Part shown: positions 2 through 63,346 of the stretch, piece by piece
Layout of the letters: each line of letters opens with the position of its first letter
Numbering within the stretch: the first letter of the stretch is position 1
NCBI GenBank assembly: GCA_049322675.1
Contig: JBMORM010000009.1
Span: forward strand, 222,132 to 286,131
Direction of reading: 5' to 3'
DNA: 64,000 bases
From: Patescibacteria group bacterium
Lineage (GTDB): Bacteria; Patescibacteriota; JAHJAL01
Made by a program: the position numbers and the translations under genes
Notes under the pieces: generated by a model
Told to the model about the DNA's origin: nothing
Database searches by the model: none
What the model saw: only the letters and a program-made list of their open reading frames with translations

Positions 2-3000
2 TATTTGAATGGAAACGGCAGTTATCTGCTTGCCAATGACGAAAAAAGTTTGCATCCGACGAGCGCTTTCACCTGGGAAGGTTGGGTTTGGAAAGATCCG
101 GCGGTCAGCAACAGACAAGCCGAAGAACCGATTTTGGCCAGCAAATACGATGGTGGAAACAATGGTGAATTTGTCGTTTATTACAACAAAAATAATAAAT
201 TGCAGTTGAGAGTGGCGGATGGCAGCAGCAATGCATTGTCCAACGAATCGAGCCTAGTCAGTCCGCTCAATTGGCATCATGTGGTGGTAACTTTTGATAG
301 CGGAGTGGTCAAATTTTATATCGACGGAGCATTGGACATGACTCAAACTTTGTCTGTAACCAATTTGACGAAACCGCCATACAATAATAATCCGACAACA
401 ATGTCAGATTTGTATTTGGGCAACGATTGGCAATTAACAAAGGGCGCTTTTGTCGGTTACTTTGATGAAGTGGCTTATTACACCAGGGCTTTGACTTTTG
501 AAGAAATACAAAATCATTTTTCGATTACTGAAACTGGAGAAAATGGGGTGACAGTCAACAATCAGGACACTCTCGCCTACCCGACCGCGGGTTTGATAAC
601 AACCAGTAATAACGCGCAAGAATTGATGAATTTAAATTTTGACGAAACTTTGGCGGATAGCCACGGAGCGACACCAACAACAATGATTGAAACTAGCTGG
701 CAGAGACCGACTTTGAATCAAATATCATATGGCGGGAATACGAATAATAATATTGTTTTGGATTTGGGTGTTTCCGGTAATTGGGATGATGCCGGTTTGC
801 ACACTCCGGAAATAATAAGAGAGGGCAATACTTATAAAATGTGGTATGCCGGAACCGATGGAACCAACTATCGGATTGGATTAGCCACAAGTTTTGACGG
901 AATAACTTGGACAAAATTTAACGGGAATAATTGTACGGGGACAACCGGCAATGGCTGCGTATTTGATATTTCCAGCAGTGGTTTTGATAGCCAATATTTG
1001 ATGTCTCCAAGTATTATCAAAGATGGGAATGGTTATCACATGTGGTATTCGGGATACAACGGCGGTTGGGGAATTGGATATGCCACAAGTGCAGATGGTG
1101 TTAATTGGATGAGACAAAATAGCGGCAATACTGTATTAAGTCTGGGCGGGGCGGGAAGCTGGGATAATTTAGTCGTTGCTCATCCAAGTGTAATGAAAGA
1201 AGGCACTTTGTATAAAATGTGGTATGAAGGTAGCGGTTCTAATTACCTGATTGGATTAGCGACCAGTACGGACGGAGTGAATTGGACGAAGTATGATAAT
1301 GCAAATGATGCGGCTTGTGGATACAGCGAAGCAAATGATGACGGATGTCTTGTTGGTTTGGGAGCAAGTGGAGAATTTGATTCTACTCATCTACAAACGG
1401 TAAATATACAAAAATATCAGAAAAAATACTATTTATTTTACAGTGGAGACTCGGCAGGCAGTTTTACTCATAAATTGGGTCTGATGACTAGCGACAACGG
1501 TATTGATTGGACCAGAGAAAATGATGGTGATCAAATAATGGATTGGGGAACAAGTGGTGCTTGGGACGACTTCTCTCTTCGATCTCCAGCAGCAATAATA
1601 CAAAATAATCAGATGATGATTTTTTATGCCGGCAATGATTCTACTGATCAACGCATCGGGCTGGCGACGATGGATTTTGATCCGGGGCGGTTTGGGAAAT
1701 CGCTTTATATCGGCAACAATGATCAATATATTTATTCTTTGAATGATAAAATTAACCGCCGAGCGGGAACGATCAGTTTCTGGGCCAAGTTGGACAATGT
1801 TGCTGATGGTTTGCATGAAGTGTTCAATATTTTTGACAAAGACAATGGTCAAGACGGACTCTATCTGGCCATGCAAAATAATCAAATCGCTGTCGGATTG
1901 AATGGAGAACAAAACATTTTGACAGGCAAGGCGGATTTGACCAACAATTATTGGAACCAGGTGACATTGAGTTGGGAAAAACCAAGCGCCAACAATAAAA
2001 ATTTAAGATTATATGTCAATGGACAACTGATTGACAGTGTTGCTTTTGCTAGTCCGATTTCTAGTGGTTATGACAGTATCCAGTTGGGTGGCAATCCGGC
2101 TGAAAGCCGAGATTATCTCAAAGGCAATTTGGATGATTTTAGAATATATAGTCAGGCCGTCGGGGATGATGCAGCCAAAGAATTATATGAAGGGTCTTGG
2201 GGAAATTCCAGTAAAAGAAACCAAGACTTTGATAGCAATAGCGCAACCGTGAATCCGATCAGTGAAGGCACGATTGAATTTATTTATACTTCCGATTGGA
2301 GCTCGGCCGGAGATAACAACGTGAGAGTTTTGGCTGATAGCCTAGGCGGAGATGGTGCAAAATATGGTTCACAATATCAAAATAGTCAGACCGCTTTCAA
2401 CCGGTTGAGGATTTGGAAAGATGAGGGAACGGAGGCAAACACTAGTGATAGATTACATTTTGGAATACTGGACAATGACGGTGATTTGTACGAAATATAT
2501 ACCAATGAGACGATTGATTTTGCTCAAGGGACAAGTTACAAGATTGCCGCTATGTGGGACTTGGACAACAATGATCTGACTACGGGCGGAAGTAATATTA
2601 TGCGCCTGATAGTGGATAATGCAGTAGTGGCCGGTGACAATTTTACGACCGGAACCACCGCCAACAAGAAAAAAAATGGAAGCGACACAAGTAACACAGA
2701 ACCAATAATAGTGACCGCTGCACCAGAGAGATTTTATATCGGTAGCGGCAAACCAAACAAACAGACCAACCGATTGGCCAATCCAAGTTTTGAAGAAAAA
2801 ACCGGCAGTGATCCGAGCAATTGGAATAAAACCGGCACGATTAATTTTGATCAAACCGGCAGTAATAGTAAATTTGCCGCTTCGGCTGTATCGATCACCG
2901 GACCGGATACGACAAATAAATTGTCACAAACGATTTCGGGCGCAATACCGGGAACATATACTTTGTCCTGGTGGAGTAAGGGCACTACGGCAACCGCTAC

Positions 3001-4633: not shown

Positions 4634-4637
4634 ACAC

Positions 4638-4747
4638 AAATTTCCAATTTCCAATTCTCAATTTCCAAACAATATTTGGTTAAGACATTAAAAAGAAATA
4701 ATGAAATATAGAAATAATTTAAATTGGAAAATGGAAATTGGAAATTT
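4638..4747. repeat. Intergenic element of 110 nt with perfect 16-bp terminal inverted repeats (AAATTTCCAATTTCCA … TGGAAATTGGAAATTT). It is built from four direct TTTCCAA-type heptamers and three inverted TTGGAAA heptamers around a 78-nt AT-rich core. It could be a MITE-like element, a long hairpin terminator, or an operator.
   Basis: Read directly. The left arm 4638-4653 is the exact reverse complement of the right arm 4732-4747. The heptamers TTTCCAA TTTCCAA TTCTCAA TTTCCAA lie at 4641-4668 and TTGGAAA ATGGAAA TTGGAAA at 4724-4744. The element sits between the stop of giant gene 1 (4633) and the ATG of giant gene 2 (4771). Confidence 0.6.
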
Positions 4748-4770
4748 AAATAAAAAAATATTTTAAATAA

Positions 4771-7700
4771 ATGACGAAGCAAAAACACAAATCTAAATTA
4801 TATCTTTTCAGTCTGGGCTTGTTGCCGTTGTTGATGATGGGCAATATTTCCGGGGAAAATTTATTGAAAAATATTGCCGGTACTTCCGAACCAAAAGCGA
4901 TTATAGCTCAAACCGGTTTGTTGGCTGACGGGTATTACCGATACAAAGACGATTCAATCGGAGTAGAGTTTGGCGATCGAAACAATGGCGAAACTCAGTC
5001 AGTTACCTTTTTGTCAGCACCTACGACAGAAAAAAACGATAATTATTCGCGACCAAAAAGTATTTCCTGGAAGATAATTGATCCTGATGATAAAAATGCG
5101 GGATGGTTGGAAAAATTGACTACCAAAATTGCCAATAATTTGGGTGGTAGATTTGCTAGCACAAATTGGAAAATTGATGGAGACCAAGCTGTTTTGTACG
5201 AAGTGCTGCCGGATGTTGATTTGCGTTATAAAATATTGCCCGGATTGGGGTTGAAGGAAGAGTTGATTGTAAAAGGGACAAAAGAGCAGGTGGAAGAGAA
5301 ATACTCTTTCGATTTGGTAACCGAACAAGGCTTGAAATTGCAAAAAGCTAGTGAAGACAATCAATACAATTTGGAAGTAGATTCATATTATTTCACGGAC
5401 ACTAGGGACAATTATGTGGCTCACTTTTTGCCACTTACCATTTATGACTCCAATGGACAAAGTAGCAATGAGGCTTCTTTGGATATAACAAATAATGGGG
5501 GTAATGATTACAAAATTACAATAACCCTCGATCATGACTGGTTGTATAACGTCGATCGACAATATCCGATTTTTATCGATCCGACGATCGTCCATGACGA
5601 TTTGACTGATTTTAATACCGGTAACGCTATGAATCGAGTAGAAGCCGTCGCCGGACCAAAAGTGCAGTTGTCCAATCAAGAATTGGCGGCCGGTGCTTCA
5701 ACTATTGGTTTGTGGCATATGAATGAAACTTCCGGTTCCACGGTTACTGATTTTTCCGGTAATAGTAACAATGGCACGGCCACAGGGACCACTATCATTG
5801 ACGGCAAATTGAACAAGGCAAGAAGTTTCAATGGTACTAGTGATTTGATAAATTTAGGTAAAAATCCATCAGTCAAAGGTTCTTCACAAGTCACAATTGA
5901 AGGCTGGATTTACCCGACCAGTTTAACAAATTATTTTCCAATTTATTTCGAATCAAATAATACCAGTGGTTATACCAGGTTGATGCTTCGAGTAGGTACC
6001 GATGGTTCGTTGAATATGGGTGGACGTGATACTGACGGCACCCCTGCTTATGTGACTTTCGCCACTAGCGCAACCGGTCTGATTACAACAAACAAATGGT
6101 ATCATGTGACTGGTGTTTACAATGCAGATACAGATATTCATAAAGTTTATATAAATGGTACCGATGTTACTAGTTCGGGAAATGTGACGGCGGCCACTTT
6201 TCCAAATACTGTTCCGACAGACAATATTTTTCTTGGATTTGTTACCGGAGGAACTTATGCCAGTGGTACTTTGGACGAAATTAGATTAATTAAACGAGCA
6301 TTATCTACAGAAGAAATTAAAGCTGATGCCGGTCTGAGACCTTATGGTGTTTATACTTCCGATGTGCTTGATCTGGAATCGGTCAATCCTACATTTAATA
6401 ATATCAATTGGACGGAAAACGGCGTGCGAACCGGCGATGGTGAAACTGATTTATCAACAACTAGTTTGGTTGCACAGTGGAATTTCAATGAAACTAGTGG
6501 CACGACTGCTTCAGTTAGCGCTGGTAGTTGTGGCAGTAATTGCAATGGCACTTTGACTAATATGACGACTACCGGACAAGATGCCAGCGCCACTTCCGGT
6601 TGGACCGCAAATAATAAAAGATGGGGAGCAGGTGCCTTGATGTTTGACGGTACGGATGATTATGTAGTAGGGATTGGAAATTCAGGCATGTCTGGTAACC
6701 CCACTTTTACTTTGGAGGCATGGTTTAAGCCAAATATATTAAACGATGCTACAATAGTTGGATTCGGAGATGGTAACACTTCTTTAGGTGCTGGTTCAAT
6801 GTTTTTGGGGGCAAATGGTTCACTATCATTAGCAACAGCTGGATCGAATAATGCAACTACTAGCACTGGAATAATAAAATCCGGACAATGGTATCACGTA
6901 GTAATAGTAAAAATTCCAGGTGCTATTAATTCAACCACAAAAATATATATTAATGGAATTGAATATCCGGTTACTGGATCAACTAGTACGCCAAACATTA
7001 CTAATCTGCCGGTTGTCTTCGGTAAATTTCCAAACTACAGCGGCTATTATTTTAATGGCACTATTGACTCCAGTCGGATTTATTCTCGCGCTCTCTCAGT
7101 CGATGAAATTTTGTCCAATTATCAAGCCGGCAATGTCCAATTTCAAACACGCACGGGAACGGACAATACACCGGATGATGGATCATGGGAAGACTGGCGA
7201 GCAGCGGGTAGTGGCGTAGAAACACAAATATTAAATATTGATACCGATAGTAGCAATTGGAACACAGACGAGATTGACGTTACTAATATTGTCAAAACTA
7301 ATGACACTGTCGTCAAACAAGAAGGCTCTGGTTCGCTAAAAATATCTACCGGCGCTGCCCAAGCTGACGCCAATACGGTTGGCTTGTGGCACTTGGACGA
7401 AACCGGTGGATCAGGTGCATATATCAAAGATGGCAGTGGCAATAGCAATCATGGCACACCGACCGGTACTAGTGTTACAAGTGGAATTAGTGGCAAAGCG
7501 AGAAGTTTTAATGGTAGCAATGACTATATTTCCATCCCCAACCCTTCCAGCGGTTTAACTTCTGGCGGAACAAAAACCATTAGTGCTTGGATCAAGACCA
7601 GTTCAACCCGAGGAGTAATTTTTAATTCATATGATGGGACCAATGGCTATCAAATATATGTTGATACATCTGGTAATCTCACTCTATATAGCAATGGCGG

Positions 7701-14685: not shown

Positions 14686-14769
14686 GAAGTATAATGGTAG
14701 GGGAAGAAATTTTTAATTTTTAAATATGTTTTGTTGGACTATCAAGATGAAAAACAAAATAAAATAAAT

Positions 14770-21681: not shown

Positions 21682-21697
21682 GCCCATTTTGGGAGTA

Positions 21698-21726
21698 TTG
21701 ATAAATATTTGTTTTGGTGATATAAT
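21698..21726 (+). promoter_or_regulatory. Sigma-70-like promoter for giant gene 4: TTGATA, a 17-nt spacer, then TATAAT.
   Basis: TTGATA lies at 21698-21703, the spacer aatatttgttttggtga at 21704-21720 and TATAAT at 21721-21726. This is about 95 nt upstream of ATG 21822. Confidence 0.5.
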
Positions 21727-21821
21727 AATAGGATTTATCTAAAGGATAGGTATGATTGATTGTACCTTGTTGATAATTAGATAAATCAGTTAGAAAAACA
21801 AAAATCACATACAAATTTTTT

Positions 21822-32696: not shown

Positions 32697-32698
32697 TA

Positions 32699-44600: not shown

Positions 44601-47600
44601 CTTCCAACGATGCGACGGCTTGTCGATGGGATATAGCCGACAGAGAATATAGCCAGATGATCAATAATTGCAGCAGTACAGAAGAATGTACAGTTAATCT
44701 AACAGGACAAGGCGCTAAAACGGTTTATTTGCGTTGCGTTGATAACCAAAATCAATCGACAGTAAATGCTTTTGAAGTAAATTATACGATTGATTCGATC
44801 GCTCCGACGACGGCGCCAACTTGTACACCGGAATCACAAATGTTTGGCGGATCAATATCGGTAAATTGTCTTGCCGGAGAAGGAGGAAACATTATTCGAT
44901 ATTCCAACGATCCCAATGATTTGGTTGATTCATCCTCGAGTGCATGGTCCGATCGGGCCATTACGACAACCACCAATTTACAATTGATTAGTTGTGACGA
45001 GGCCAATAACTGTTTTCTGGAAGCTAGTCAGTACGATTACACCAAGGATGGCACTCCACCCCCTACTCCACTTATGATTACTGAACCAACTTATACGCGA
45101 GGGACTTCCAATACGATTCGTTCACAAACAGTAACCGATGGTGGCATTGGCGGCACGATTGAATATCAATTTGGCTGGAATTTGACCGGAACTGCCGGTA
45201 GCGGAATGACAGTTACAAGCGACTGGACAACAACCTCGGAAGCGATTTTCGGAAATTTGGCCGACAATACATATTATTATTTTGTTCGGGCTAGAGATGT
45301 TTTTGAAAATACAAGCGCGTGGAGTAGTCCGGTAGCTTCGATTCAAGATAATTTGGCGGCGACTTTGACGGAAATCAATTCGGTCGCTGGCGACACAACT
45401 CCCAATGAATGGGGAGACAACACAGATGATGCTTATACGGATGTTATTTACACAGCTGATCCCGATGTTTCTGACTGCAAATGGAGCGAAGAAGATCAAA
45501 CTTATGGAGCCATGCCCAATACCTGCAATAGCGTCAATCGCTGCATTTTGAACCTGACCGGCGAAGGCGAACATAATATATATTTGCGTTGTGCCGACAA
45601 AGCTGGAAATGCTGACGCGGTTTCTTATAATCTACAATATTTTATCGATACCGCGCCGCCGACTGCCAAACCGACATGCACGGCGACCGGAGTGATCGAC
45701 GGATATTTCGCAACAAGTGTAAATGTGACGTGCAGTCCGGGGACGGGAGGAGACGAAGTACGTTATACCACTGACAACACTATCCCCACCTGGCAATCAA
45801 CATTTTGGAATAATCGCAGTTTTAATCAAACAACTACTTTGAAGGCGATTAGTTGCGACTGGGCCAATAATTGTTTTGATGAAGTGGAAACCAACGTATA
45901 TACCCAAGATTTGGTAGCGCCGCCCTTGCCAGTCATGAACGCCGAACCGGCTTATACCGCCGGATTGACCAATCTGGTCAGTGGGACGACGGTAACAGAT
46001 GTTTTGCCGGGCGTTGGTTTGGTGACATATCAATTTAAAATGAAATATTATGATGGCAGCAGTTGGGCGGAATCAGCCACGGCTTGGCTGGACCAACCGG
46101 AATACAACTTTACTGGTTTAACCCATGGTCGCACATACTATTATGCCGTCCGGGCTCGAGATGGTTTAAATAATTTACCGCCGGACAACGCTTGGAGTAG
46201 CGAAGTTTCTTCTACGCAGGACAATAATTATCCGATGGTAACCGGAGTCAATTATGTAGTCGAAGATTACGATTTGCCTTATGTTGATGAGACGGATGAT
46301 AGCAACACTTATATCGAATACACTACTAGTGATTCACCAGTGACTTGCCGATGGAGTGATACCAATGAGAGTTATGGCGACATGGAAAATACTTGCGAGA
46401 ATACGAGCGGATGCACATTGACCTTGAATAATATTGGTGACAAAACAGTTTATATGCGTTGTACTGACGCAGCTAATAATCAGTCACCCACGTCATATCG
46501 TCTGGATTATCGCGTGGATCCCAATGGCGATGGCCGTCCGCCCCAAATTACCACTATCAATACCGTGGCCGGTGATAATACTAGTCCGTATTTTGATCAA
46601 ACAGACAATAGTCAAACTCTGGTGGAATATACCGCGACGACTGATGCCACCACTTGTCACTGGGGAACGGTCGAAGGAACATATAATGATTTGCCCAACA
46701 CTTGTACGAGTGTCAGTAATTGTAATTTGAATTTGGCTGGCAATGGTACCAAAACTATATATATGCGCTGTATCGATGGTGCCGGCAATAGACAGCGCAG
46801 TTCACGATTATTGGTTTATACTATTGATTCCTTACCGCCGACGGTCAATCTGGTGAGTGTGGCCGGCGACACGTTTGCTCCGTATTATGACACATCGGAT
46901 GACAATAACACGGTTATAAATATTAATAGTAATGATAATTTGACCGGAGTGCAAAACTGCCGCTGGGACGAAAATGACCAAAGTTATGGAGCGATGGCGA
47001 ATAATTGTGAAAATAATAATCAATGTAATTTTTCGACATACGAAGGAGAAAGTAATCACACGGGTTATATTCGTTGTACAGACAATATTGGTAATGCGAT
47101 GAGTAGTTCACAGACGGTTACTTTTGGTATTGACCAAACAGAACCGACGGTCAATAGTATCGTTGACGTGGCCGGAGATACCAGTACTCCGTATTATGAT
47201 CGAAGCAATAACACTGATACGGTGATTAATTTTAATTCATCAGACAATTTTTCCGGGGTGGCTGATTGCCGCTGGTCAACTACTGATATCGGTTATGACA
47301 ATATGTATTCGGGTGGCGAACCTGCTTATTATCGTAACTGCTCGACGAGCAGTTGCGCAGTGGGAAGTGATTACATTTACAATTCTTTCTGGGGTGAGGG
47401 CAATCATACAGTTTACTTGCGTTGTATTGATATTGCCGGCAATCGTACCTCAACCTCCTATCCAGTCAATTTGACAATCGATTCCATACCGCCAACCGTC
47501 AATTCAATAATTAGCGTAGAAAATGATCTGACAGCACCGTATTTTGATTATACTGACAATGCTTTGACAGAAATAAAATATAGCGCCAGCGATAATGCGC

Positions 47601-50600
47601 TGGGTATTGCCGGTTGTCGCTGGGATACAAATAATGTCAATTATGAAGTTATGGGACAAGACTGTGATATCAATGATGCTACTTGTGACATCAATGAGTC
47701 TGGTCAGGGTTGGCATAATGTTTTTCTCAAATGTATTGATCTGGCCGGAAATACCAATAGTTATAATACTTATGAATACAATGGCAATTTTGATGAAACA
47801 ATATTGGTTCCAGCCCTGCGAGCCAATTACTATATCGATACTTCAGCTTCCAATATCATAATTGATTCCGTAAATGGGCGGACCGATACTCAACATTATG
47901 ACGACAATACTGATGATGGGCAGACGGTGATCAATTTTCACAATGTTACCGCCTTGGACAGTAATACGGCAGCGGAAGATATTGCCGAATGTAAATGGGA
48001 TAGCGAGGACAAAACATATACAGAAATGACCCAGGTTTGTGCTTCGACTACTAGTTGCGTCAGTAATCTAACCGGGGAAGGAAACAAAACAATATTTATA
48101 CGCTGCAAGGATAATCAAGATAATATGACCGCCAGCAAACAAGTTGATTACAAAATTGACCTGACTCAACCACAGATAACCAATTTGATATCAGTAGCAG
48201 GTGATACGACAGTGCCATATTATGACACCAAACCGGATGACTTTTACTCTCAAGATTCTTGGCACAATCTATCAACAGCGATTTTTACAACTTCCGATAA
48301 TTTGGCCGGGGTCCAGACTTGTCGTTGGGATACAAGTGATAAAAATTATGACACGATGAGCAACGAATGTAATTCGGCCAGCAGTTGCGCAGTCAATATT
48401 GCCGATCAGGGCGTGCACAACGTATATGTCCGCTGCCGTGACTGGGCGGGGAATCCAATGAGTTCATCACTGAATTATGAATATACATACGATGTTCAGG
48501 GACCAACGATCAGTTTAAATGTCGTGGAAAATGATATGACTTTGCCATATTTTGACTATACCGACAACGGAAATACGGCGATTGATTTTGCAGTTGATGA
48601 TAATGTTTTGGGAGTAGCCGGTTGTAAATGGGATCACAACACAAGTAATTACAATTTGATGACTTACACTTGCGCCAATTTGGGATTGTGTATTTTTGAC
48701 ACAATGGGCGAAGAAGAACAGACGAATTATATTTCTTGTATCGACGAAGGTGGAAACGCTTCCAGTCAAACAGTAAATTATTGGATTGACACTCGCCCAC
48801 CGATAATTACCAGTATTACTTCGGTCGCTGGTGACACAACAGCCAATGATTACAATGACAATACTGACAATAGAGATACTTTGGTGATTTTTAATACCTT
48901 GGCTGAAGATACAGCTGAATGTAAATGGAGCCAAAATAATCTAGCCTACGATAGTATGAGTAATGTTTGCGAAGGAGCTGATCGCTGTCGTCTAAATTTG
49001 ACGGGCGACGGGGAAAAGACAGTTTATCTACGATGCAAAGATCAGCAAAATAAAAAAGCGATTGCGCCCTATGTTTTGTCTTACAATATTGATACCACAC
49101 CGCCAAACATAACTAGTATTACTCATGTGGCTTCGGATTATTCCGCTCCCTATTTTGATCCCAACATGGATTTTATAACTCCGATTAGTTTTTCATCTTA
49201 TGACAATGTTTCAGGAATCGAATCTTGCCAGTATCATATGGGTGATGCATTTTACAAATATAGTTGCGACAACAACAATCTGTGTACTGTCAGAGAATTT
49301 ACCGGTATTTCCAATCGTTATGGCAGTCATACGGCTTATATCAAATGCAAAGACTACGCTCAAAACGAGATGGTGGATTATTATCCGGTAAATTACACGA
49401 CAGATTATTACGGTCCGGATATCGACTTGATTAGTATCGCCGAGGACACTACAGCCCCATATTATGACACCTCCGATGATGGAAATACAGTGGTAAGGAT
49501 TGAAACCAGCGACTTGGCGGGGGCGACAGCTTGCCGGTGGGGTATCAATCCCGATCCAGTCCACTTGTTGGATTACAAGCCAAACTACAGTCAGTTGGAT
49601 AATATTTGCGAATCAACCGAACAATGCACTTTGTATTTGATGGGACAAGGAACGAAAACTATTTATATGCGGTGCATAGATAGCTTGGGTAATCAGACTA
49701 GTAGCAATGATAGTGAAAATCGGCCGTTTGTTTTTAATTACACCATTGATAGTTCAGCCGACGGGACTCCGCCGCGAATTAGCAAAATCAATTCAGTAGC
49801 CGGAGACACAACCGCAGTTTATTACGATAATTCCGACAATCAGGATACGGTGATCAGTTATCAAGTGGACGCTGATACCAATAACTGTAAATGGGATGTA
49901 GCAAATTTGAGTTATGACAATTTGGCCAATATTTGCGAAAGCACCAATACATGCAATTTGAATTTGGCGGGAGAAGGAGCGAAGAAAGTATATTTCAAAT
50001 GTATAGATAACGCCGGCAATAAAACTATTAATCCATATATTTTGCGTTACACGATCGACATCACCGCTCCCACTGTTTTAGATATAGTTACTATTGCCAG
50101 TGACCCCAATAATCCATATTTTGACAATACCGACGACGAACAAACTTTATTGCTTTACCACGCCAGTAGCGATACGGCGACCTGCAAATGGAGCACCAAC
50201 AACCAATCATATGCCGCCATGCCCAATACTTGCGCCTCAACCGAACAATGCAATTTTAACCTAAGTGGTTGGGGAGAAAAAAATGTCTTTATGCGCTGTA
50301 TAGACCATGCCGGCAATATTGGCTTATCTTCATACGCTATTAGTTATACTTTGGATGCCGGCGCCGATGGTACGCCGCCGATAATCCAATCCATTGATTC
50401 GGTTGCGGGTGATGAAACGCCAACTTATTATGACAGTAGCGACGATAGCAATACCGAGGTTTTATTTACTGCTTCACCCGACTCCACTCAATGTAAATGG
50501 AATACACTGGATGTCCCTTATGAACAAATGCAAAACTTCTGTGAATCAACCGGACAATGTATTCTCAATGTGAGCGGGCGCGGAGCAAAGACCGTGTTTA

Positions 50601-52021
50601 TAAAATGTATGGATGATGCCGGCAATATGGCGGTCAATTCGTATGTCTTGAATTATATTATTGAGACTATGACGCCGAGAATAACGGCAGTAACGGCGGT
50701 GGCCGGCGATATGAATTATGTTTATGTGGACCCGACCGATGACGGACAAACTTTGGTGGAATATGAAACTACAGAGGGGACAACTGAATGTAAATGGGAT
50801 GTTTTGGATACAAATTACGATAACATGAATAATACCTGTCAAAATACGGAAAGATGCTTACTGAATCTAATCGGGGGCGGCAGTCAAAAGGTTTATATGA
50901 GGTGCAAAAATGCGGCCAATATGAAGTCAGATACATCTTTTAAATTGAATTACGAAATCGGGCAACCGGCAACTGATGAAAATCACTCATCAATTACCGC
51001 CCAAATAAAGGATTCTATCCCCCGCCATCCCAACACGGTAACGGTTTACTATAATCCTGCTTTTGAAAACGCAGTCAGTGACGGATCAATTAAATTAATT
51101 TTGTCAGATGAATTTGATTTATCAGGTATAACCAAAGATGATGTCATGGCTTTGGGTGGAGGGGTGGAATGGGTTAACAACGAAGTAATAACCGCAGCGG
51201 GGGAACAGATTGCCAGGAATGAAACATTGTGGGATAAATTGGCCAAGATGATAGCTCAACCACAAAATGCTCAAGCGGATGGAGAAAATTCAATCATCTT
51301 TCCATATGTTGGCGACTTGGACGGAGACAATAGTGATTTGCAATTTATTATTGGCAATGCCAATAAAATAATAAATCCGTTCACGGCCGGCACTTATCAC
51401 GTAACACTAGAAGTCAGAGATGAAGCCGGGGAAGTGATCGAGACATTGGAGGCGATGATCGCGATTAGCGAAGAGGTAAATGTAACCGCGAGTATACCGT
51501 CGATATTAACTTTTTCGATCAATCCAGTGGATAGCGGCGAGGCGGTCAATAATAATATAACTAACCAGCCGACTTTAACATCAGATAGTGTCAATTTTGG
51601 CGTTTTCCAAGCGGCTGATGACCGAATCGCTGCTCATGATTTGAACGTTTCTACCAACGCCGCCAATGGTTATATAGTGACAACACAGTACACTGGGGCT
51701 ATGACCGGTAACGCCGGTATGATGGCAGATTTCATTGGCACCAATTTGAACCCGCAAACATGGTCAAATCCGACCGGTTTGGGTGTGGAGAGTTATTTTG
51801 GATATACAACCACTGACTTTTCTTTGTCGCAAGTTCCAACAGACCGTTTTGCGAGCAATAACTGGGCGGCATTTTCTGTCATTCCTGCCGAAGTTGCTTC
51901 CAATAATCAATCAGTAAATGAAGAAATTACCAGAATCGGTTACCGGTTGCAAATCACCGACAAACAACCAGCCGGGGTTTACAACACGTCAGTTACATAT
52001 ATTTGCACTTCGATTTATTGA
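32699..52021 (+). CDS. Giant secreted multidomain protein 5 (about 6440 aa). Domains in order: signal peptide; conserved N-terminal module; about 9 LamG/ConA-like modules; four cycles of four-Cys, CHB_HEX_C-like and FN3-like modules with one F5/8 discoidin insert; about 15 further tandem four-Cys modules; conserved C-terminal module. Its start overlaps the stop of gene 4.
   Basis: ATG lies at 32699 and 32702. The ORF track opens at TTG 32693, which forms a TTGA overlap with the TGA stop of gene 4 (32694-32696). The N-terminus MMKKIKTKNERWFDRILTSTALIFCYGLSLISTVTA is signal-like. The C-terminus …SVTYICTSIY precedes a TGA stop. Confidence 0.9.
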   Translation: MMKKIKTKNERWFDRILTSTALIFCYGLSLISTVTANEDSDWMATSWGSNFNYQYQDENFVASVGDKLTDTPDTITLQVKNPEPGESWWEKWQTEDYKTMTLTLLDGEQITNDPTDQSMSDAEDKAQELEEQRSSLLNKVGSWIDLDPSSELYKTDDDQLMNQNVIDDVDSEYTIWPDYGIKENLIVKGTNGQATNTFYYQLKLDEGIEYFSTDDGNPFNLPENTYYFVDQKGNYLAHFLPILVYDSNHNLTNQVNLEINPTSDEQILMVKVQVDYAWMIDSDRQYPIIIDPTIVHNTNTDFGNGRAIDRMSLNDNILSNAEMPTATDSSVVGLWHMDEESGTSVNDYSGNNITGTSVNTTVEDGKFGKAKYFNNINTYVQIPASSAFNFGTNDWTFETWIKPSSFEACDTIYSQNNPYTILRFDCERGGSYWEIYNNGVQYDLPAHGMVAGNWYHVAVVRSNNFVYLYQNGNLLSFVSVGSNSTNLSGAIWRIGNSTWNGEYFHGDIDEFVVRNRSLTPEQVKLEAQKKSYGLYDSSVLDLGSDFSKYDKISWEEQGVQTGNGETPYSTEGLVTQWNFNETSGTTAYNNAGSCEGTCNATLSNMTTTSQDAAPNSGWTANNKRWGGGGLMFDGSNDFISISHNSNFNLTSSWTVETWIKRTGPTTTNSDGSIWKFIVRKGTYNTFGLLYDPTSGKVYSNIYNGSAWKNSTSQSVLDIGQWHHIVGVYEGNDSGTLKIFFDGVLENTTTGVGTPSTNTDPLSIIGTSNISSVSTYWPAILDSTRIYSRALAGDEILSNYQAGNIELQTRSGETADPDDGSWENWKPAGSGTETTLDNSDNLYQYNTTDSGLVSYWPMDELTDSSVEDVKGTNNGTATGTKIIDGKFGKARSFNGTTSDYISIPHSADLDFERTSTFSISSWFKSNTTGYESIVSKTDSAYKGWTLFKLANSDPNRPNSVCLILTNVNATSDMFACTPANSISAGNTYHIAMTYAGNSDASGVKIYFNGISQTVTSFRNNLTGSIQNSSPTLIGKHAYAGGNYYLNGWMDELRIYNIVLSSSQVTNQYNEGINALGQTAVQNKSSQNIKAEGTASQKISTGVPLVDANTVALWHLDETGGTGAYIKDSSGNGNNGTPTGTTSVVDGISGKARNFNGTVNDYISIPSSTSLNISSNITIEAWLFRNAAGIQRIVTKTVGNGAANNPYDFGIYTDDKLYFVRASSTTPQSFFSTNTVPVNSWSHVAVTVNNNALSFYVNGIASGTGTFTITPTTNSNPVLIGTRNDGGIFNGKIDEVRVSNIARSADEIAEAYRMGREHRITHLLDTNIDLSNNSKLPFYIAADKPGNYLQTTIGESAFANNEPDTNTVGLWHLEEATGSGAYIKDSSSYSNNGTPAAKTIFDGKIGKAVYGANISMSNEANFRFERTQPFSISGWIKIATLSSGRGYQNIFAKMLGTSPYTGYHLLVADGADSAVTGAGILRFGLINTWTTNTLLIQTNNRVDDSQWHYVVATYDGTSSASGAKIYIDGALVPTTTKYNSLTASIVNSSASPYISTSSYGGVDEVRIDKVVRTADEIRQAYEIGKRTHSVTIDFAAGLDSGNLISNNSDQSFTIDATNKGLSQKGSNLFVGEKVIVRENYDGTEYIAQGLVNSVDVSTGAIDVTSWDSNSTFPSIGFSVNADVFKWQREYWDLTGIMDNQIDSANRLTIRLADGAEGRNVWFDDFKTVGSYLSDPTGSLLNSTSNRYLQYRVMSSTTDTKVAPSLSSVTIKRPPTIDEDNESILAINEGLNRCKITSDPLIKLKNMEPANDPYLVGHWKMNETNGSTVADSSGNGNNGTATGTSIADGVMDKARVFNGSSDFVSIANQVLKQTPNLSFEAWFKQNSTSTYQNIIWATPAGPGSGIALNVDRRVIFQLDLVTGDYRAYQTNTNAYELNTWNHVVGTYSNGIFKIFLNGNEQIISLAGGTGSGDFVGETNYFIGHETSGNYFKGMIDEVSVFNKNLTPEEIKAHAQKRPYGTYTSKVLDLINNPQLNSLTWGELGVQTGSGETPKDATGLVAQWNFNETSGTTATNNAGSCGAACNGTLTNMTTSGQDASVNSGWTANNKKWGAGAAMFDGSDDYINIGSTSNLAVTNFSLETWVKTNTTALSVILGKKSNSTGGWYAYRLATYSGKINVRVQQSATPSFLDLDSNFSQINNNEWHHVVVTFDSDNKVRIYIDGKLDITSSTGNAIYYANQVSDFMIGTDVDGTKRLNGTIDSTKIYSRALSADEILSNYQAGNIELQTRSGATADPNDGSWQEWRPAGSGTETTLVNNENDSSNWSWNSVAAYMPKSKSDDSVVRLNGNTSTKLQTGILQSDANTIALWHLDETGGAGAYIKDSSGNGNDGTPSGTTVIDGIIGKARSFNGTSDYIQKTSVPAQSIYSFDMWFKPQNTITSSSACMTLMQMRTGATGDYFALQTGSCTSSLTNETITIFHDTPGRTGVLNVNISNSWHHITVNWDSSINEYRIYLDGVVQTTNSGTDGKAAFFNDPERIQIGAYMYSGTYSSYFAGLIDEVRISSAARTPEEIAEAYRAGANHHLTRDLTSAQNLSNNNKISFNVAADQPGTYLQTMIGESAFANYEPDANTVGLWHLEEATGSGAYIKDSSNSGNNGTPTGTTFIDGKIGKGRSFNGSSDYISISNNSNLNLLSEDFVIDVWVKPSTVTGTQEIISKRNGAVAEGFVIRRESGVYNFWATSNGSSWDISYGKSLGAASANTWSYLVVTRQGNNFYFYNNGIQTDSLTSSAAIQTNTRNINIGRDGSGQYFSGVIDEVRLKKGAGVTGGQIRQAYEVGKRSHNVTIDFAASLDSDNLIIDSNDKSFTIDATTKGLSYPAENLFSGDKIIVRENYNGTEYIAQGTVNGVDQDSGAVTVSSWDSGSTFPSGGFTVNADVFKWQTEYMDISQIANEDKDAMSQISLRLTNGSGGRNIWLDDFESINNYLTDPTGSAIASTSNQYLQYRAILTSNDTLLTPSFNDISLDYSPQQSSTLSSVSSSAAYLNNLNKNNFPITCQGVTASEPDLTITCQASLNQSNWYDVTSANSPLSNADLTGNVDFAGWTGYPEADGELTIYARTSDGTYASQIVNFVVNKDTVDPAINTINSVAGWTTTPYFDNTDDGNTEIIFETSPDTHSCRWDENDLSFTAMTNTCTAVGDCQIDLTGQGAKTVYISCDDTAGNILHPSQTVNYTIDSIAPTTTPTCSPADNTYFKDNLAVTCVSGEGGDLVRYTSDGTDPTISSDQWFNTNINNTSDLKFISCDLAGNCLTTFSQYHYILDNVAPPAPIINNEPQYTAGTTNAVSSNTVTDTGVGGVQYEFCADNTRSMDINLALNKTATASWTYTTQTPALAVNNNTNDFWGSGGYPPAWIRIDLGSKQNFNQLKLLPQGSPTGTVYYHIQGSDDGNNFTTIMANASANTAGPTWSTHNFSMQSYRYVRIYCNDWANSWVGIREIEIYNTADQPTASCISSGWKDVSNNIFENLLDSTKYYYFVRSKDALNNLSAWSASVNSIQDNVKPEITGINSVAGDSLAPWADKTDDGETIVNFSSSADTADCFWNTDDVAYEEMANLCATTSACTLDQVGEGNHTVFIRCSDIAGNTMDSSLVLNYAIDTIAPTTAPTCIPADNTYFYDQLVAGCTPGFGGTLVRYTNNGNTPGELSTIWENDQTINATTTFKLISCDDANNCFNEHSTYTYNKDTSPPPTPVMTAEPQLSPGTTNTVTSNTVNDTGVGGVNYQFCFSNSDSTENCNSSAWLTTNSYTFTNLAHEVKYYYFVRSKDALNNTSVWSGSTSSTQDNVAPAILSIENIGGDDTSPYLDSTDDGVTVANFISSPDAASCRWATVDADYDLMVHNCSSTGSCTFNLTGPSTKMIYLRCKDTAGNKMNYSTLMMYDVDIIPTINSITYVEDDANAPYFDLTDNGETTIIFGTSNDATACRWDIADREYSQMINNCSSTEECTVNLTGQGAKTVYLRCVDNQNQSTVNAFEVNYTIDSIAPTTAPTCTPESQMFGGSISVNCLAGEGGNIIRYSNDPNDLVDSSSSAWSDRAITTTTNLQLISCDEANNCFLEASQYDYTKDGTPPPTPLMITEPTYTRGTSNTIRSQTVTDGGIGGTIEYQFGWNLTGTAGSGMTVTSDWTTTSEAIFGNLADNTYYYFVRARDVFENTSAWSSPVASIQDNLAATLTEINSVAGDTTPNEWGDNTDDAYTDVIYTADPDVSDCKWSEEDQTYGAMPNTCNSVNRCILNLTGEGEHNIYLRCADKAGNADAVSYNLQYFIDTAPPTAKPTCTATGVIDGYFATSVNVTCSPGTGGDEVRYTTDNTIPTWQSTFWNNRSFNQTTTLKAISCDWANNCFDEVETNVYTQDLVAPPLPVMNAEPAYTAGLTNLVSGTTVTDVLPGVGLVTYQFKMKYYDGSSWAESATAWLDQPEYNFTGLTHGRTYYYAVRARDGLNNLPPDNAWSSEVSSTQDNNYPMVTGVNYVVEDYDLPYVDETDDSNTYIEYTTSDSPVTCRWSDTNESYGDMENTCENTSGCTLTLNNIGDKTVYMRCTDAANNQSPTSYRLDYRVDPNGDGRPPQITTINTVAGDNTSPYFDQTDNSQTLVEYTATTDATTCHWGTVEGTYNDLPNTCTSVSNCNLNLAGNGTKTIYMRCIDGAGNRQRSSRLLVYTIDSLPPTVNLVSVAGDTFAPYYDTSDDNNTVININSNDNLTGVQNCRWDENDQSYGAMANNCENNNQCNFSTYEGESNHTGYIRCTDNIGNAMSSSQTVTFGIDQTEPTVNSIVDVAGDTSTPYYDRSNNTDTVINFNSSDNFSGVADCRWSTTDIGYDNMYSGGEPAYYRNCSTSSCAVGSDYIYNSFWGEGNHTVYLRCIDIAGNRTSTSYPVNLTIDSIPPTVNSIISVENDLTAPYFDYTDNALTEIKYSASDNALGIAGCRWDTNNVNYEVMGQDCDINDATCDINESGQGWHNVFLKCIDLAGNTNSYNTYEYNGNFDETILVPALRANYYIDTSASNIIIDSVNGRTDTQHYDDNTDDGQTVINFHNVTALDSNTAAEDIAECKWDSEDKTYTEMTQVCASTTSCVSNLTGEGNKTIFIRCKDNQDNMTASKQVDYKIDLTQPQITNLISVAGDTTVPYYDTKPDDFYSQDSWHNLSTAIFTTSDNLAGVQTCRWDTSDKNYDTMSNECNSASSCAVNIADQGVHNVYVRCRDWAGNPMSSSLNYEYTYDVQGPTISLNVVENDMTLPYFDYTDNGNTAIDFAVDDNVLGVAGCKWDHNTSNYNLMTYTCANLGLCIFDTMGEEEQTNYISCIDEGGNASSQTVNYWIDTRPPIITSITSVAGDTTANDYNDNTDNRDTLVIFNTLAEDTAECKWSQNNLAYDSMSNVCEGADRCRLNLTGDGEKTVYLRCKDQQNKKAIAPYVLSYNIDTTPPNITSITHVASDYSAPYFDPNMDFITPISFSSYDNVSGIESCQYHMGDAFYKYSCDNNNLCTVREFTGISNRYGSHTAYIKCKDYAQNEMVDYYPVNYTTDYYGPDIDLISIAEDTTAPYYDTSDDGNTVVRIETSDLAGATACRWGINPDPVHLLDYKPNYSQLDNICESTEQCTLYLMGQGTKTIYMRCIDSLGNQTSSNDSENRPFVFNYTIDSSADGTPPRISKINSVAGDTTAVYYDNSDNQDTVISYQVDADTNNCKWDVANLSYDNLANICESTNTCNLNLAGEGAKKVYFKCIDNAGNKTINPYILRYTIDITAPTVLDIVTIASDPNNPYFDNTDDEQTLLLYHASSDTATCKWSTNNQSYAAMPNTCASTEQCNFNLSGWGEKNVFMRCIDHAGNIGLSSYAISYTLDAGADGTPPIIQSIDSVAGDETPTYYDSSDDSNTEVLFTASPDSTQCKWNTLDVPYEQMQNFCESTGQCILNVSGRGAKTVFIKCMDDAGNMAVNSYVLNYIIETMTPRITAVTAVAGDMNYVYVDPTDDGQTLVEYETTEGTTECKWDVLDTNYDNMNNTCQNTERCLLNLIGGGSQKVYMRCKNAANMKSDTSFKLNYEIGQPATDENHSSITAQIKDSIPRHPNTVTVYYNPAFENAVSDGSIKLILSDEFDLSGITKDDVMALGGGVEWVNNEVITAAGEQIARNETLWDKLAKMIAQPQNAQADGENSIIFPYVGDLDGDNSDLQFIIGNANKIINPFTAGTYHVTLEVRDEAGEVIETLEAMIAISEEVNVTASIPSILTFSINPVDSGEAVNNNITNQPTLTSDSVNFGVFQAADDRIAAHDLNVSTNAANGYIVTTQYTGAMTGNAGMMADFIGTNLNPQTWSNPTGLGVESYFGYTTTDFSLSQVPTDRFASNNWAAFSVIPAEVASNNQSVNEEITRIGYRLQITDKQPAGVYNTSVTYICTSIY
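42090..46230 (+). repeat. Four tandem cycles of three module types in giant gene 5. A is a four-Cys module of about 100 aa (…SVAGDTT.PY.D.TDD..T…YT.S.DA..C.W…D..Y..M.N.C.S…C.L.L.G.G.K.VY.RC.D.AGN). B is a CHB_HEX_C-like module (IAPTTAPTC.P…..VRYT.DG..P……KAISCD.ANNCF). C is an FN3-like module (…YYYFVR.KDALNN.S.WS).
   Basis: The A modules start near 42090, 43370, 44210/44510 and 45360. The B modules start near 42400, 43660, 44800 and 45650. The C modules start near 42650, 43900, 45050 and 45900. Confidence 0.6.
42812..43185 (+). other. F5/8 type C (discoidin) domain inserted inside the first FN3-like module of giant protein 5.
   Basis: NKTATASWTYTTQTPALAVNNNTNDFWGSGGYPPAWIRIDLGSKQNFNQLKLLPQGSPTGTVYYHIQGSDDGNNFTTIMANAS……YRYVRIYCNDWANSWVGIREIEIY fits the discoidin pattern …A.A.DG…T.W………WI.vDLG….i..V.l………y.i..S.DG..Wt…. 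Confidence 0.55.
46230..50950 (+). repeat. In-frame tandem array of about 15 copies of the four-Cys A module in giant gene 5, with a period of about 300-330 nt.
   Basis: Copies start near 46240, 46540, 46850, 47150, 47500, 47850, 48180, 48510, 48810, 49110, 49430, 49790, 50080, 50390 and 50690. Each ends …(V/I)Y(M/L/I)RC.D.AGN…… Y.ID. with conserved C.W, NTC, C.LNL and RC cysteines. Nucleotide identity between copies is only moderate, so the array is old or under diversifying selection. Confidence 0.7.
51030..52021 (+). other. Conserved bipartite C-terminal module of about 330 aa (beta-sandwich-like domain plus a terminal domain of about 170 aa). The same module is found at 13775-14685 (gene 2), 20815-21681 (gene 3), 31775-32696 (gene 4) and, for the terminal half only, at about 4213-4633 (gene 1). 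It is a candidate surface-anchoring or sorting module.
   Basis: The shared pattern is L.F.INPV..G…NG..TN……FG…..DDRIAAHDL..STNA.NGY.V…………DF.G.N..P..W..P.G….YFGYTT.D..L…..RFA…W..F…..EV……TTR.GYRLQI…..GVY…V.YI.TS.Y-stop. All five proteins end in a [TS].Y tripeptide. Confidence 0.6.
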
Positions 52022-53731: not shown

Positions 53732-53750
53732 ATGCCAAGTGAAGGAGTGT

Positions 53751-59075: not shown

Positions 59076-59126
59076 TGAGACAAAATATTTTTATAATACA
59101 GGGGGGTAAATATTTTTTATTAATTT

Positions 59127-59975: not shown

Positions 59976-59982
59976 TAATCGG

Positions 59983-60849: not shown

Positions 60850-60859
60850 AAGAAAATAT

Positions 60860-61447: not shown

Positions 61448-61456
61448 GTTGAGAGA

Positions 61457-62632: not shown

Positions 62633-62651
62633 GGGGGAAGTTGTGTTAAAT

Positions 62652-63251: not shown

Positions 63252-63266
63252 ATTAACAATTTATAA

Positions 63267-63343: not shown

Positions 63344-63346
63344 CTT

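Follow-up and report, generated by a model that had tools for sequence, protein, structure and literature searches.

Four of the five giant genes lying in tandem in a 64,000-nt stretch of Patescibacteria DNA (the window, taken at its whole length) end in a module that is homologous to the pilins of Pam pili, representing a divergent sister clade of these pilins and not a rule-based member of their family, as judged by profile comparisons. Pam pili of Ca. Mycosynbacter amalyticus, with the proteins PamA, PamB, PamE and PamT, were described by Troman et al. (bioRxiv 10.64898/2026.03.03.709456; families NF058581 and NF058579), who do not mention giant lectin–pilin fusions. The fusion of giant lectin arrays to a Pam-type pilin is what is new here, the Pam pilin type itself being already known. 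In our opinion, these four giant proteins are probably plugged into host-contact Pam fibres or assembled like them.

The array of giant genes and its domains

Five + strand ORFs fill 81% of the window (52,020 of 64,000 nt) and encode about 17,200 aa in total. Their coordinates confirm the tandem arrangement and the sizes proposed in a previous sequence-only reading of this DNA. Gene 1 (5..4633, open to base 2) is 5'-truncated and encodes at least 1542 aa with two LamG modules (aa 2–168 and 570–723). The product of gene 2 (4771..14685), 3304 aa long, contains a signal peptide, an N-terminal module (N-module), five LamG modules, two four-Cys repeats, two DUF2341 domains and the pilin module, and is 100% identical to the public protein P0046 on the Logan contig SRR32167788 (SRR32167788_208695). 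Gene 3 (14770..21681, or from 14731 with a TTG start) encodes 2303 aa from ATG or 2316 aa from TTG; the ATG at 14770 is the likely start, and the same 2303-aa call was obtained on the Logan contig L017. Its product begins with a hydrophobic segment that is an anchor or a signal, followed by a divergent N-module; LamG is absent, a beta-helix is only weakly indicated, and the protein ends in the pilin module. Tandem repeats of about 650 nt with low GC are located in the gene at 17.2–19.7 kb. Gene 4 (21822..32696; 3624 aa) combines a signal peptide, the N-module, seven LamG modules, Lcl_C, five four-Cys repeats and the pilin module. Gene 5 (32693..52021) encodes 6442 aa from TTG, with a signal peptide, the N-module, nine LamG modules, discoidin, CHB_HEX_C, 20 four-Cys repeats and the pilin module. 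It is followed on the same strand by the iPGM gene (52072..53664), which marks the 3' end of the array in relatives too (66–70% identity in the contigs L021 and L004).

The translational coupling of genes 4 and 5 through a TTGA overlap, suggested earlier, holds only in part: the overlap exists, but the ATG codons at 32699 and 32702, 3–6 nt past the stop of gene 4, are likelier starts of gene 5 than TTG. UGA is a sense codon in Gracilibacteria and Absconditabacteria; such a code was rejected for this DNA, the ORFs being intact under table 11 and genes 1, 4 and 5 terminating at TGA.

Both non-coding elements noticed previously were found again. An inverted repeat of TTTCCAA heptads (4638–4664 / 4721–4747, assigned to neither strand) lies between genes 1 and 2; it has 27-nt arms, 89% complementary, and a 56-nt spacer (dG -26.4, fold z -4.35), and is unique in the window. 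Gene 4 has its own predicted sigma-70-like promoter on the + strand (21698–21726, TTGATA-17-TG-TATAAT, 11/12 match), followed by a leader of about 95 nt with a perfect 11-nt inverted repeat (21732–21742 / 21777–21787). The search of the whole window against Rfam gave no family, so that neither this leader nor the repeat upstream of gene 2 is a known RNA element.

The N-module is common to the products of genes 2, 4 and 5, at 32–34% identity over more than 1300 aa, as was claimed for three genes, and that of gene 3 is weakly similar to it. The products of genes 3–5 each have one hydrophobic segment, at the N-terminus, with no other in the protein, and an acidic composition, both features being in keeping with an extracellular location; that of gene 2 has a shorter signal-like h-region at its N-terminus. 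The proposed signal peptide or anchor in four genes is predicted here as well. The view of the array as lectin-rich modular secreted proteins from a lineage of ultra-small bacteria is supported, the homologues being named 'Patescibacteria group bacterium'.

Matches to Laminin_G_3 (Pfam) number two, five, none, seven and nine in genes 1–5, that is, exactly 23, where about 23 had been estimated, and a purpose-built LamG HMM maps the same copies. The nine modules of gene 5 form a block at aa 376–2826. Pfam also recognizes several of the other domains that had been named: DUF2341 in gene 2, Lcl_C (= DUF1566) in gene 4 (aa 1497–1580), and F5_F8_type_C (discoidin, aa ~3377–3494) and CHB_HEX_C_1 in gene 5; support for the beta-helix and FN3-like domains is weak, and the sole trace of the beta-propeller and CBM-like domains is a marginal, partial Glyco_hydro_130 match in gene 1.

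The four-Cys module occurs in 27 copies of about 103 aa, each with exactly four Cys residues, 20 of them in gene 5, five in gene 4 and two in gene 2. Four copies are contiguous in gene 4 (aa 2900–3302), and in gene 5 contiguous Ig-like repeats (46220..50968, + strand, aa 4510–6092) form a stalk that ends directly before the pilin module. The structure model of the repeat (pLDDT 96) folds like PKD, FN3 and BIg domains in Foldseek searches, with a match to SiiE (2yn3). The module described as novel is thus real, but its fold is an ordinary Ig/PKD/FN3-like one, its novelty being confined to the sequence family.

No Pfam family covers the N-module, the four-Cys repeat or the pilin body. No whole-protein match to a curated surface family, S-layer or other, was found, Pfam and NCBIfam giving per-domain matches only; assignment to a single well-characterised family, the outcome named earlier as contrary to the proposal, was thus not obtained in profile searches. 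Giant LamG-rich proteins stand out in the genomes of CPR bacteria, where their only annotations are 'hypothetical' and 'CUB domain-containing'.

An orthologous array is present in JAEAMF010000148.1 (80% identity for gene 2, 56% for gene 3, 52–62% for gene 4 and 58% for gene 5), and further ones are found in CALKWM010000038.1 and Ga0180430_10000051. The gene order of the window is kept in JAEAMF010000148.1 and CALKWM010000038.1, and the Ga0180430 array, like the contig L004, ends at iPGM. In the comparative check recommended earlier, gene content differs among the orthologous arrays. At the DNA level, the closest match between paralogues reaches 83% identity over 104 nt, and most matches lie at 65–75%. 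Active cassette recombination or gene conversion in the array was rejected, there being no inter-paralogue DNA repeat above 83% identity. Content does vary among relatives, but the term 'diversifying family' is not supported as a statement about active recombination.

The C-terminal pilin module

The last ~320 aa of the products of genes 2–5 are similar to each other at 30–41% identity (profile E 1e-90 to 1e-114), and the only family matching them, over their last 148 aa, is NCBIfam NF058581 (CPR_Pam_pilin_C). On the + strand, the module is located at 13729..14682 in gene 2 (aa 2987–3304; NF058581 E 4.4e-5, module profile E 6e-90), 20719..21678 in gene 3 (last ~320 aa; E 2.2e-3, profile E 2e-99), 31581..32693 in gene 4 (aa ~3254–3624; E 5.6e-6, profile E 2e-109) and 50942..52018 in gene 5 (E 2.4e-9). 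The NF058581 matches of genes 3–5 span nearly the whole model (3–148 of 148 in gene 3, 2–148 of 148 in gene 4) and reach the last residue. All four scores, 18–37.5 bits, are under the curated 55-bit cut-off, and the proteins are therefore not called Pam pilins under NCBI's rule; undoubted pilin-operon proteins of Roizmanbacteria reach only 38–41 bits.

In gene 5, the module consists of a predicted beta-sandwich NTD, a conserved linker, VNVTASIPSILTFSINPV, and a truncated-Ig CTD. The inter-domain linker (consensus VxVTAxVPxxLTFxIxPV), with its alternating hydrophobic residues, is kept in genes 2–5 and belongs to the best-conserved stretches. This fits the statement that conservation in Pam pilins is highest in the donated linker and the groove of the CTD (Troman et al., bioRxiv 10.64898/2026.03.03.709456). 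The shared C-terminal module, which had been noticed but left anonymous, can now be read as a complete Pam-type pilin body with NTD, linker strand and truncated-Ig CTD, and this ties the array to the pilus system described in 2026.

The statement that all five genes share this module is robust for genes 2–5 but overstated for gene 1. The C-terminus of gene 1, ending in ...AGTYNSSVSVIVTPRY, resembles the pilin CTD only marginally: a weak alignment over its last 75 aa was obtained, and only with a deeper profile of 173 CTD sequences (8.1 bits, E 9e-5 for one target). It gave no match to the 27-sequence module profile, even with filters off, no NCBIfam match and an hhalign probability of 5%, and no homologues of it were found in a search of 5.8 billion proteins.

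An AF2 model of the gene 5 module has a mean pLDDT of 81, with 89–97 in the CTD and about 75–80 in the eight-stranded NTD, the linker being of low confidence or self-docked in this monomer model. [quoted passage not shown] The Foldseek check recommended earlier returned donor-strand-exchange pilin folds: CfaB, PapG, CsuE, TasA and PapA, and further a TasA-like protein, CsuA/B, FimA, the pilin domains of FimH and PapG, and CfaE. Strand-exchange pilins, and not generic Ig domains, dominate these matches. When PDB sequences were searched with the module profile, only insignificant matches to the CfaA chaperone came up (E 0.2), and the PDB copies searched yielded no chains or structures of PamA and PamB.

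An exhaustive profile search collected 4274 relatives of the module, most of which are pilins of 340–540 aa. Fusions of 1,000–6,400 aa make up at least 22 of the 150 best-scoring of these 4274 matches, and in each of these 22 proteins the module ends at the C-terminus or within seven residues of it, as it also does in every fetched locus. In pilin-sized relatives, which are complete proteins of 350–520 aa, the signal peptide is directly followed by the same body, and the alignment spans this whole body, whereas a large insertion separates the two in the giants. NF058581, the only recurrent family, is matched, under the cut-off, by 69 of 100 pilin-sized relatives.

Operons with pilin-sized relatives include a PamT-like protein (NF058579, E 9e-12). 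Proteins of 305–350 aa, in which a beta-rich body stands between a signal peptide and a TM helix at the C-terminus, alternate with the pilin-sized genes, and this is the architecture of PamC/PamD (Troman et al., bioRxiv 10.64898/2026.03.03.709456). Neighbours of this kind, membrane-anchored PamC/D-like chaperones, PamT or PamR, adjoin pilin-sized relatives in 14 loci, and among the loci fetched every pilin-sized one outside the giant clade has a chaperone-, PamT- or PamR-type neighbour. Related genome loci are labelled Roizmanbacteria, Levyibacteriota, Microgenomates and Saccharibacteria, with CPR in 8 of 11; the other three MAG loci are labelled 'uncultured Gammaproteobacteria', and two module-bearing contigs have 53–58% GC and non-CPR-like neighbours. 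A two-gene cassette of a membrane-anchored N-module protein and a small pilin was found in the contigs L006, L020 and L031.

Possible assembly of the giant proteins

We lean, with some reserve, towards the explanation that the giants are adhesins built into a Pam-like fibre, or placed at its tip, by donor-strand exchange. The array would then provide a bacterium of the Patescibacteria (CPR) with Sec-exported giant adhesins, each complete protein comprising a signal peptide or anchor, a conserved N-module of about 250 aa, a variable cargo and the C-terminal pilin body. The cargo consists of lectin-type domains (LamG arrays, discoidin, Lcl_C, DUF2341 and a putative beta-helix), and the four-Cys Ig-like repeats of genes 2, 4 and 5 form in genes 4 and 5 a stalk up to the pilin module. 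The pilin body may act as in PamA and PamB, where the open CTD takes the linker strand of a neighbour subunit, and its own linker could be donated to another subunit. Such an exchange would hold the lectin array non-covalently within the fibre or at its tip, and the differing cargoes of the paralogues may give differing specificities to glycans or host surfaces. An appendage of 6442 aa at a pilin rise of 5 nm is sterically awkward except at the tip or in sparse positions, which counts against the fibre model.

Homologues of PamC/D-like chaperones, PamT and PamR are absent from the window and from the 10 kb around any giant-type locus; within the 64-kb window, neither tblastn nor HMM searches found chaperone homologues, and no usher or chaperone family gave a match. 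It is conceivable, if rather unlikely, that the pilin modules of the giants polymerise together or with small pilins of the same clade independently of PamC/D, giving a bottle-brush fibre or a lectin-array surface coat, as TasA or archaeal threads do, instead of canonical Pam decoration. Against such self-assembly, chaperone genes could lie in other parts of the genome, and the only sequence-family match of the module is to a chaperone-assisted Pam system. We would also give a low probability to a further reading: a clade of Patescibacteria would build strand-exchange fibres without dedicated chaperones, the giants being subunits or an ordered tip complex, with the products of genes 2–5 laid down like the tip fibrillum of the P pilus and each link bearing thousands of lectin-domain residues. 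The giants might then have arisen by fusion of the two-gene cassette, the middle being inflated by lectin and Ig-like repeats.

The N-termini bear on another, comparably doubtful, explanation, namely that the proteins are free-standing surface fibrils with an N-terminal membrane anchor, whose C-terminal module is an Ig-like cap or a wall- or host-binding domain. The array would then consist of ordinary giant adhesins like SiiE or BIg-repeat adhesins, with no strand exchange. The N-terminal segment of gene 3 looks like a signal anchor (KD 2.69, without an obvious AXA site), and the small N-module proteins are anchored at the N-terminus, but genes 4 and 5 have typical cleavage motifs (SLA↓Q and VTA↓N). 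The folds of classical giant adhesins, namely SiiE BIg, PKD and FN3, are also those that the stalk repeats resemble, and the sub-threshold scores with the pilin family NF058581 also agree with this explanation. It leaves unexplained, however, why whole pilin-sized proteins in pilin–chaperone operons consist of this same module, why its extreme C-terminal position is constant and its terminal strand invariant, and why strand-exchange pilins dominate the fold matches.

Secreted host-cell-wall-degrading enzymes or toxins, of the kind suggested for the giant genes of predatory Omnitrophota (giant genes discussed in bioRxiv 10.1101/2023.11.21.568195), are highly improbable: the weak partial Pfam matches, i.e., Glyco_hydro_130 in gene 1 (marginal, 27.4 bits over 50 aa), sialidase N-terminal, trans-sialidase C-terminal and clostridial neurotoxin receptor-binding domains, all fall on LamG/ConA-like lectin folds or are fragments, and a glycosidase or toxin function was rejected, no catalytic domain exceeding the curated Pfam or NCBIfam thresholds in ~17,200 aa.

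Related systems and biological meaning

Compared by sequence family and described architecture, Pam pilins and the giants have in common the signal peptide, a CTD matching NF058581 and relatives in pilin, chaperone and PamT-like operons. The giants differ in scoring under the family cut-off, as a divergent sister clade, in carrying 2,000–6,100 extra lectin or Ig-like residues between the signal peptide and the pilin body, and in lying as five genes in tandem without the chaperone, PamT and PamR of Pam operons nearby. Their clade resembles the 'PamA_LM' matches in Microgenomatia, obtained by a language model only (Troman et al., bioRxiv 10.64898/2026.03.03.709456).

FimH, PapG, CsuE and CfaE also combine an N-terminal lectin or receptor-binding part with a C-terminal incomplete-Ig pilin domain that a strand of the neighbour completes; in the giants such a domain is predicted. 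Adhesins of the FimH/PapG type belong to diderms, contain about 300 aa with one lectin domain and no donor strand, and need an outer-membrane usher, whereas the giants have up to nine LamG and other modules, keep the donor linker, and are expected to lack both usher and outer membrane. The giants would thus follow, by analogy, the same two-domain logic at a 10- to 40-fold larger scale. TasA, TasA-like proteins, archaeal threads and bundling pili form donor-strand fibres without chaperones, but their subunits are small, single-domain and free of cargo, and these families show no sequence-family match to the giants. In modular type IV pilins, such as PilB of S. sanguinis, a pilin is likewise fused to an adhesive module and the fibre binds; the pilin fold and the assembly machinery are different there, and PilB is, according to the abstract of PMC8179133, bimodular with one functional module on the pilin. 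SiiE, BIg/RTX adhesins and the Omnitrophota giant genes are similar in size, tandem Ig-like stalk repeats or occurrence in ultra-small or predatory bacteria. Unlike SiiE and RTX adhesins, the giants lack both a type 1 secretion signal and RTX repeats, would be anchored through the pilin module, and belong to another lineage with another domain set.

A central question about ultra-small episymbiotic CPR bacteria is how they locate their hosts and stay attached to them. Pam pili were structurally identified only in 2026, and their host-binding determinant was stated by the authors to be unknown (Troman et al., bioRxiv 10.64898/2026.03.03.709456). With the relatives collected here, the Pam-like pilin family comprises at least 4274 sequence clusters, in which the giant-fusion architecture recurs, and the clade without an adjacent chaperone bears on the assembly of fibres in a monoderm-like envelope. 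The pilin body at the end of the giants provides a concrete link that can be tested, in which strand-exchange fibres may carry the lectin arrays as their adhesive cargo.

The C-terminal module of the giant genes

Five consecutive giant open reading frames (ORFs) of the plus strand span 81% of the 64 kb, as the sequence-only reading had described: gene 1 (5..4633, open to the window edge), gene 2 (4771..14685), gene 3 (14731..21681), gene 4 (21822..32696) and gene 5 (32693..52021). The C-termini of genes 2–5 have one consistent NCBIfam match, NF058581 (CPR_Pam_pilin_C, Pam pilus system pilin subunit), which stops at the last residue in all four (E 2.4e-9 to 2.2e-3), with scores under the 55-bit cut-off in every case. 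The match spans model positions 2–148 or 3–148 of 148 in genes 3–5; in gene 2, the best stretch covers positions 103–148, and a second stretch is also reported. This model goes back to work posted in 2026 (bioRxiv preprint 10.64898/2026.03.03.709456), in which the filaments of Ca. Mycosynbacter amalyticus, a CPR parasite, were solved. According to this work, in the pilins PamA and PamB one linker strand connects a nine-strand β-sandwich N-terminal domain (NTD) with a truncated Ig-like C-terminal domain (CTD), which is completed by the linker of a neighbour (donor-strand exchange); the operon also encodes a CTD-only tip pilin PamT, the membrane-anchored chaperones PamC/D and the anchor PamR, and the system has no usher.

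The last ~320 aa of genes 2–5, common to them at 30–41% identity, correspond to a whole mature pilin rather than to the CTD alone: pilin-sized homologues are made up of a signal peptide placed directly before the same body, with an N-terminal ...SDTLSxSR... motif, the NTD and the linker. The conserved linker VxVTAxVPxxLTFxIxPV is found both in these homologues and in the giants. For the gene-5 module, AlphaFold predicts an all-beta fold, with very high confidence in the CTD (pLDDT 89–97) and moderate confidence in the NTD; the structural neighbours of this model are mostly strand-exchange fibre subunits (CfaB, PapG, CsuE, TasA and PapA by Foldseek). The module had been attributed to all five genes; this holds for genes 2–5, and for gene 1 it is suggested by a weak 8-bit alignment of a 173-sequence CTD profile to the last 75 residues, ending exactly at the last one. 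BLAST, hhalign (probability 5%) and a 27-sequence profile with all filters off did not detect the module at the gene 1 C-terminus, which has no detectable homologues.

Domain content, paralogy and control elements

Pfam finds 23 Laminin_G_3 stretches (2, 5, 0, 7 and 9 in genes 1–5), equal to the number of LamG modules counted earlier, and a profile built from the window recovers the same 23 copies, successive copies in the tandem arrays being spaced roughly 240–290 aa from start to start. Pfam likewise recovered DUF2341 (gene 2), Lcl_C (gene 4), discoidin (gene 5) and CHB_HEX_C_1 (gene 5). The ~103-aa repeat with exactly four cysteines (27 copies: 20 in gene 5, five in gene 4 and two in gene 2) was regarded as novel, and indeed it has no Pfam family, but AlphaFold models it (pLDDT 96) as an Ig-like sandwich of seven strands, similar to PKD, FN3 and SiiE BIg domains. 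Judged by this model, the fold is a common one and the repeat is part of a stalk; the run of repeats in genes 4 and 5 stops immediately before the C-terminal module. The giants are acidic, and each complete protein has one N-terminal hydrophobic segment, with no further transmembrane-like stretches in the ~17,200 aa of genes 1–5. Gene 3 contains at 17200–19700 (aa ~830–1650) at least four tandem repeats of ~650 nt (~217 aa), 65–69% identical in DNA and low in GC (0.29–0.37 vs 0.41 for the window).

The first ~1,300–1,400 aa are common to genes 2, 4 and 5 at 32–34% identity, in accordance with the N-terminal module ascribed to three genes, and the ~250-aa N-module of gene 3 is a distant relative as well. 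Gene 1 has LamG modules and one internal segment in common with the others. DNA identity between paralogues reaches a maximum of 83% (over 104 nt) and is mostly 65–75%; the duplications within the array are old, and nothing points to recent gene conversion among the paralogues.

Gene 3 most likely starts with the ATG at 14770, and the resulting product of 2303 aa agrees with the call on an identical public contig. Genes 4 and 5 abut, but the overlapping TTG, earlier taken for a sign of translational coupling, is a less probable start of gene 5 than either of two ATG codons 3–6 nt beyond the gene-4 stop. Gene 4 does have its own promoter, a near-consensus extended −10 one (TTGATA-17-TG-TATAAT, 21698–21726), followed by a ~95-nt leader (21727–21821) that carries a perfect 11-nt inverted repeat (21732–21742/21777–21787) and matched no Rfam family. 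The inverted repeat noticed before gene 2 was also found (4638–4747). It is AT-rich, with 27-nt arms of 3–4 TTTCCAA heptads each, folds far better than shuffled sequence (z = −4.35), has no second copy elsewhere in the 64-kb window and no match in Rfam; it may bind a protein or act as an unusual terminator/attenuator.

Relatives of the array and of the module

On contig JAEAMF010000148.1, genes 2, 3, 4 and 5 all have orthologues, arranged as in the window (80%, 56%, 52–62% and 58% identity), and CALKWM010000038.1 has gene-2-like, gene-3-like and gene-4-like genes in order. In Ga0180430_10000051, the gene-2-like protein is 3573 aa long and has seven LamG; next come a 634-aa ORF, which overlaps by 4 nt the gene-3-like ORF after it, and a gene for a 3370-aa gene-4/5-like protein, followed by a reverse-strand ORF and the iPGM gene, the 3' neighbour of the array. 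In another contig (L004), a gene-4-like end is accompanied by an unrelated gene of 877 aa and by iPGM. Judging from these arrays, the locus and its iPGM boundary are conserved but gene number and cargo vary, a gene-5 orthologue being absent from two of three relatives. This supports the predicted variability of content, as old divergence rather than ongoing shuffling.

When 1.84 billion representatives were searched exhaustively by HMMER, the module profile matched 4274 of them at E≤1e-3 (864 at E≤1e-30). The best 150 of the 4274 are mostly proteins of 340–540 aa and include 22 giants of 1,000–6,399 aa, gene 2 itself among them, and in all 22 the module ends at the C-terminus or within a few residues of it. 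The giants are already public, without functional annotation; three are named by NCBI "CUB domain-containing protein" or "hypothetical protein" of Patescibacteria group bacterium. NF058581 was matched by 69 of 100 pilin-sized members, and no other family was recurrent. At 14 loci, each pilin-sized gene is followed by one whose product, of 305–350 aa, combines a signal peptide and a beta-rich body with a transmembrane helix at the C-terminus and a basic tail. Homologous to one another, these proteins fit the architecture described for PamC/D, and one such operon has a PamT-like gene.

The module-bearing loci are labelled Patescibacteria, Roizmanbacteria, Levyibacteriota, Microgenomates and Saccharibacteria, together with three MAGs labelled Gammaproteobacteria. 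The contigs of the latter (L009, L011 and L015, "uncultured Gammaproteobacteria") carry canonical pilin-chaperone-pilin-chaperone operons, which means either mis-binning or mislabelling or a distribution wider than the Pam preprint reports. Two high-GC contigs, L001 (0.53) and L005 (0.58), encode module proteins of 494 and 570 aa; the former has neighbours (chorismate-binding enzymes, an ECF transporter and YkuD) not typical of a CPR genome. Perhaps the family extends outside CPR; otherwise, these contigs are from unusual CPR. Another sequencing run contains a variant with 95% identity to the gene-5 C-terminus (P0001, 450 aa, on a 1.7-kb Logan contig), an indication that public data include closely related strains, which could be mined for population variation.

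Whereas the Pam system has chaperones, PamT and PamR in the pilin operon, no homologues of these were found in the window or up to 10 kb from any of the giant-type loci examined; the giant array is missing the chaperone neighbourhood by which the canonical system is defined. Small pilins of the giants' clade also have no adjacent chaperone and are preceded by a ~300-aa N-terminally membrane-anchored protein, whose gene overlaps that of the ~355-aa pilin (L006, 1791–3744; L020, 6540–8457; L031, 4393–6325). Homology to the giants' N-module extends over the C-terminal ~110 aa of the anchored protein (hhalign probability 91.7%, E 8e-7), so the giants hold both products of this two-gene cassette in one chain, with lectin and Ig-like repeats between them, and the cassette may be the ancestral unit of the fusions. 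PamT-like fusions of the linker and CTD only also occur, behind a Kelch β-propeller (L008, 4625–10390, 1921 aa) and behind propeller-like SKIYYVWQEY repeats (L012, 8603–10396, 597 aa).

Between iPGM and a surface-glycan cluster lies a gene for a 375-aa acidic protein (53739–54866) without a signal peptide, for which no Pfam or NCBIfam family and no tblastn match in the fetched loci were found. The cluster (55186–63997) comprises a 1000-aa GT1+GT2 fusion, a second GT2, three methyltransferases, Wzt with Wzt_C, and Wzm, and from this gene content is predicted to be an ABC-transporter-dependent polysaccharide pathway. In such systems, Wzt_C reads a terminal modification, here possibly a methyl cap. 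The product could glycosylate or coat the same surface as the giants.

Putative mode of action of the giants

According to the best-supported reading, towards which we lean slightly, the giants are adhesins exported via Sec, whose C-terminal Pam-type pilin body would join a Pam-like fibre or other giants by donor-strand exchange; the main support comes from sub-threshold sequence homology, predicted folds and gene context. They would occupy the tip or sparse positions along the shaft, and assembly could be performed by chaperones encoded elsewhere or proceed spontaneously, as in TasA and archaeal threads. The giants would present their lectin arrays on an Ig-like stalk, much as FimH and PapG present a single lectin domain on a pilin domain. 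It is less likely that the module is a mere terminal Ig-like domain of N-terminally anchored fibrils, since it exists as whole pilins in pilin-chaperone operons and its fold matches are dominated by pilins. Lytic enzymes are unlikely, because genes 1–5 have no catalytic domains at the curated thresholds of Pfam and NCBIfam.

Two-domain pilus adhesins have long been known, and Pam pili were described only recently. In the literature searched, no equivalent was found of a conserved tandem array in which thousands of lectin-module residues are fused to a complete Pam-type pilin, and the Pam preprint does not mention giant lectin-pilin fusions. The same preprint states that the mode of host binding by Pam pili is unknown, and the lectin-pilin fusion offers a testable hypothesis for host attachment in CPR.
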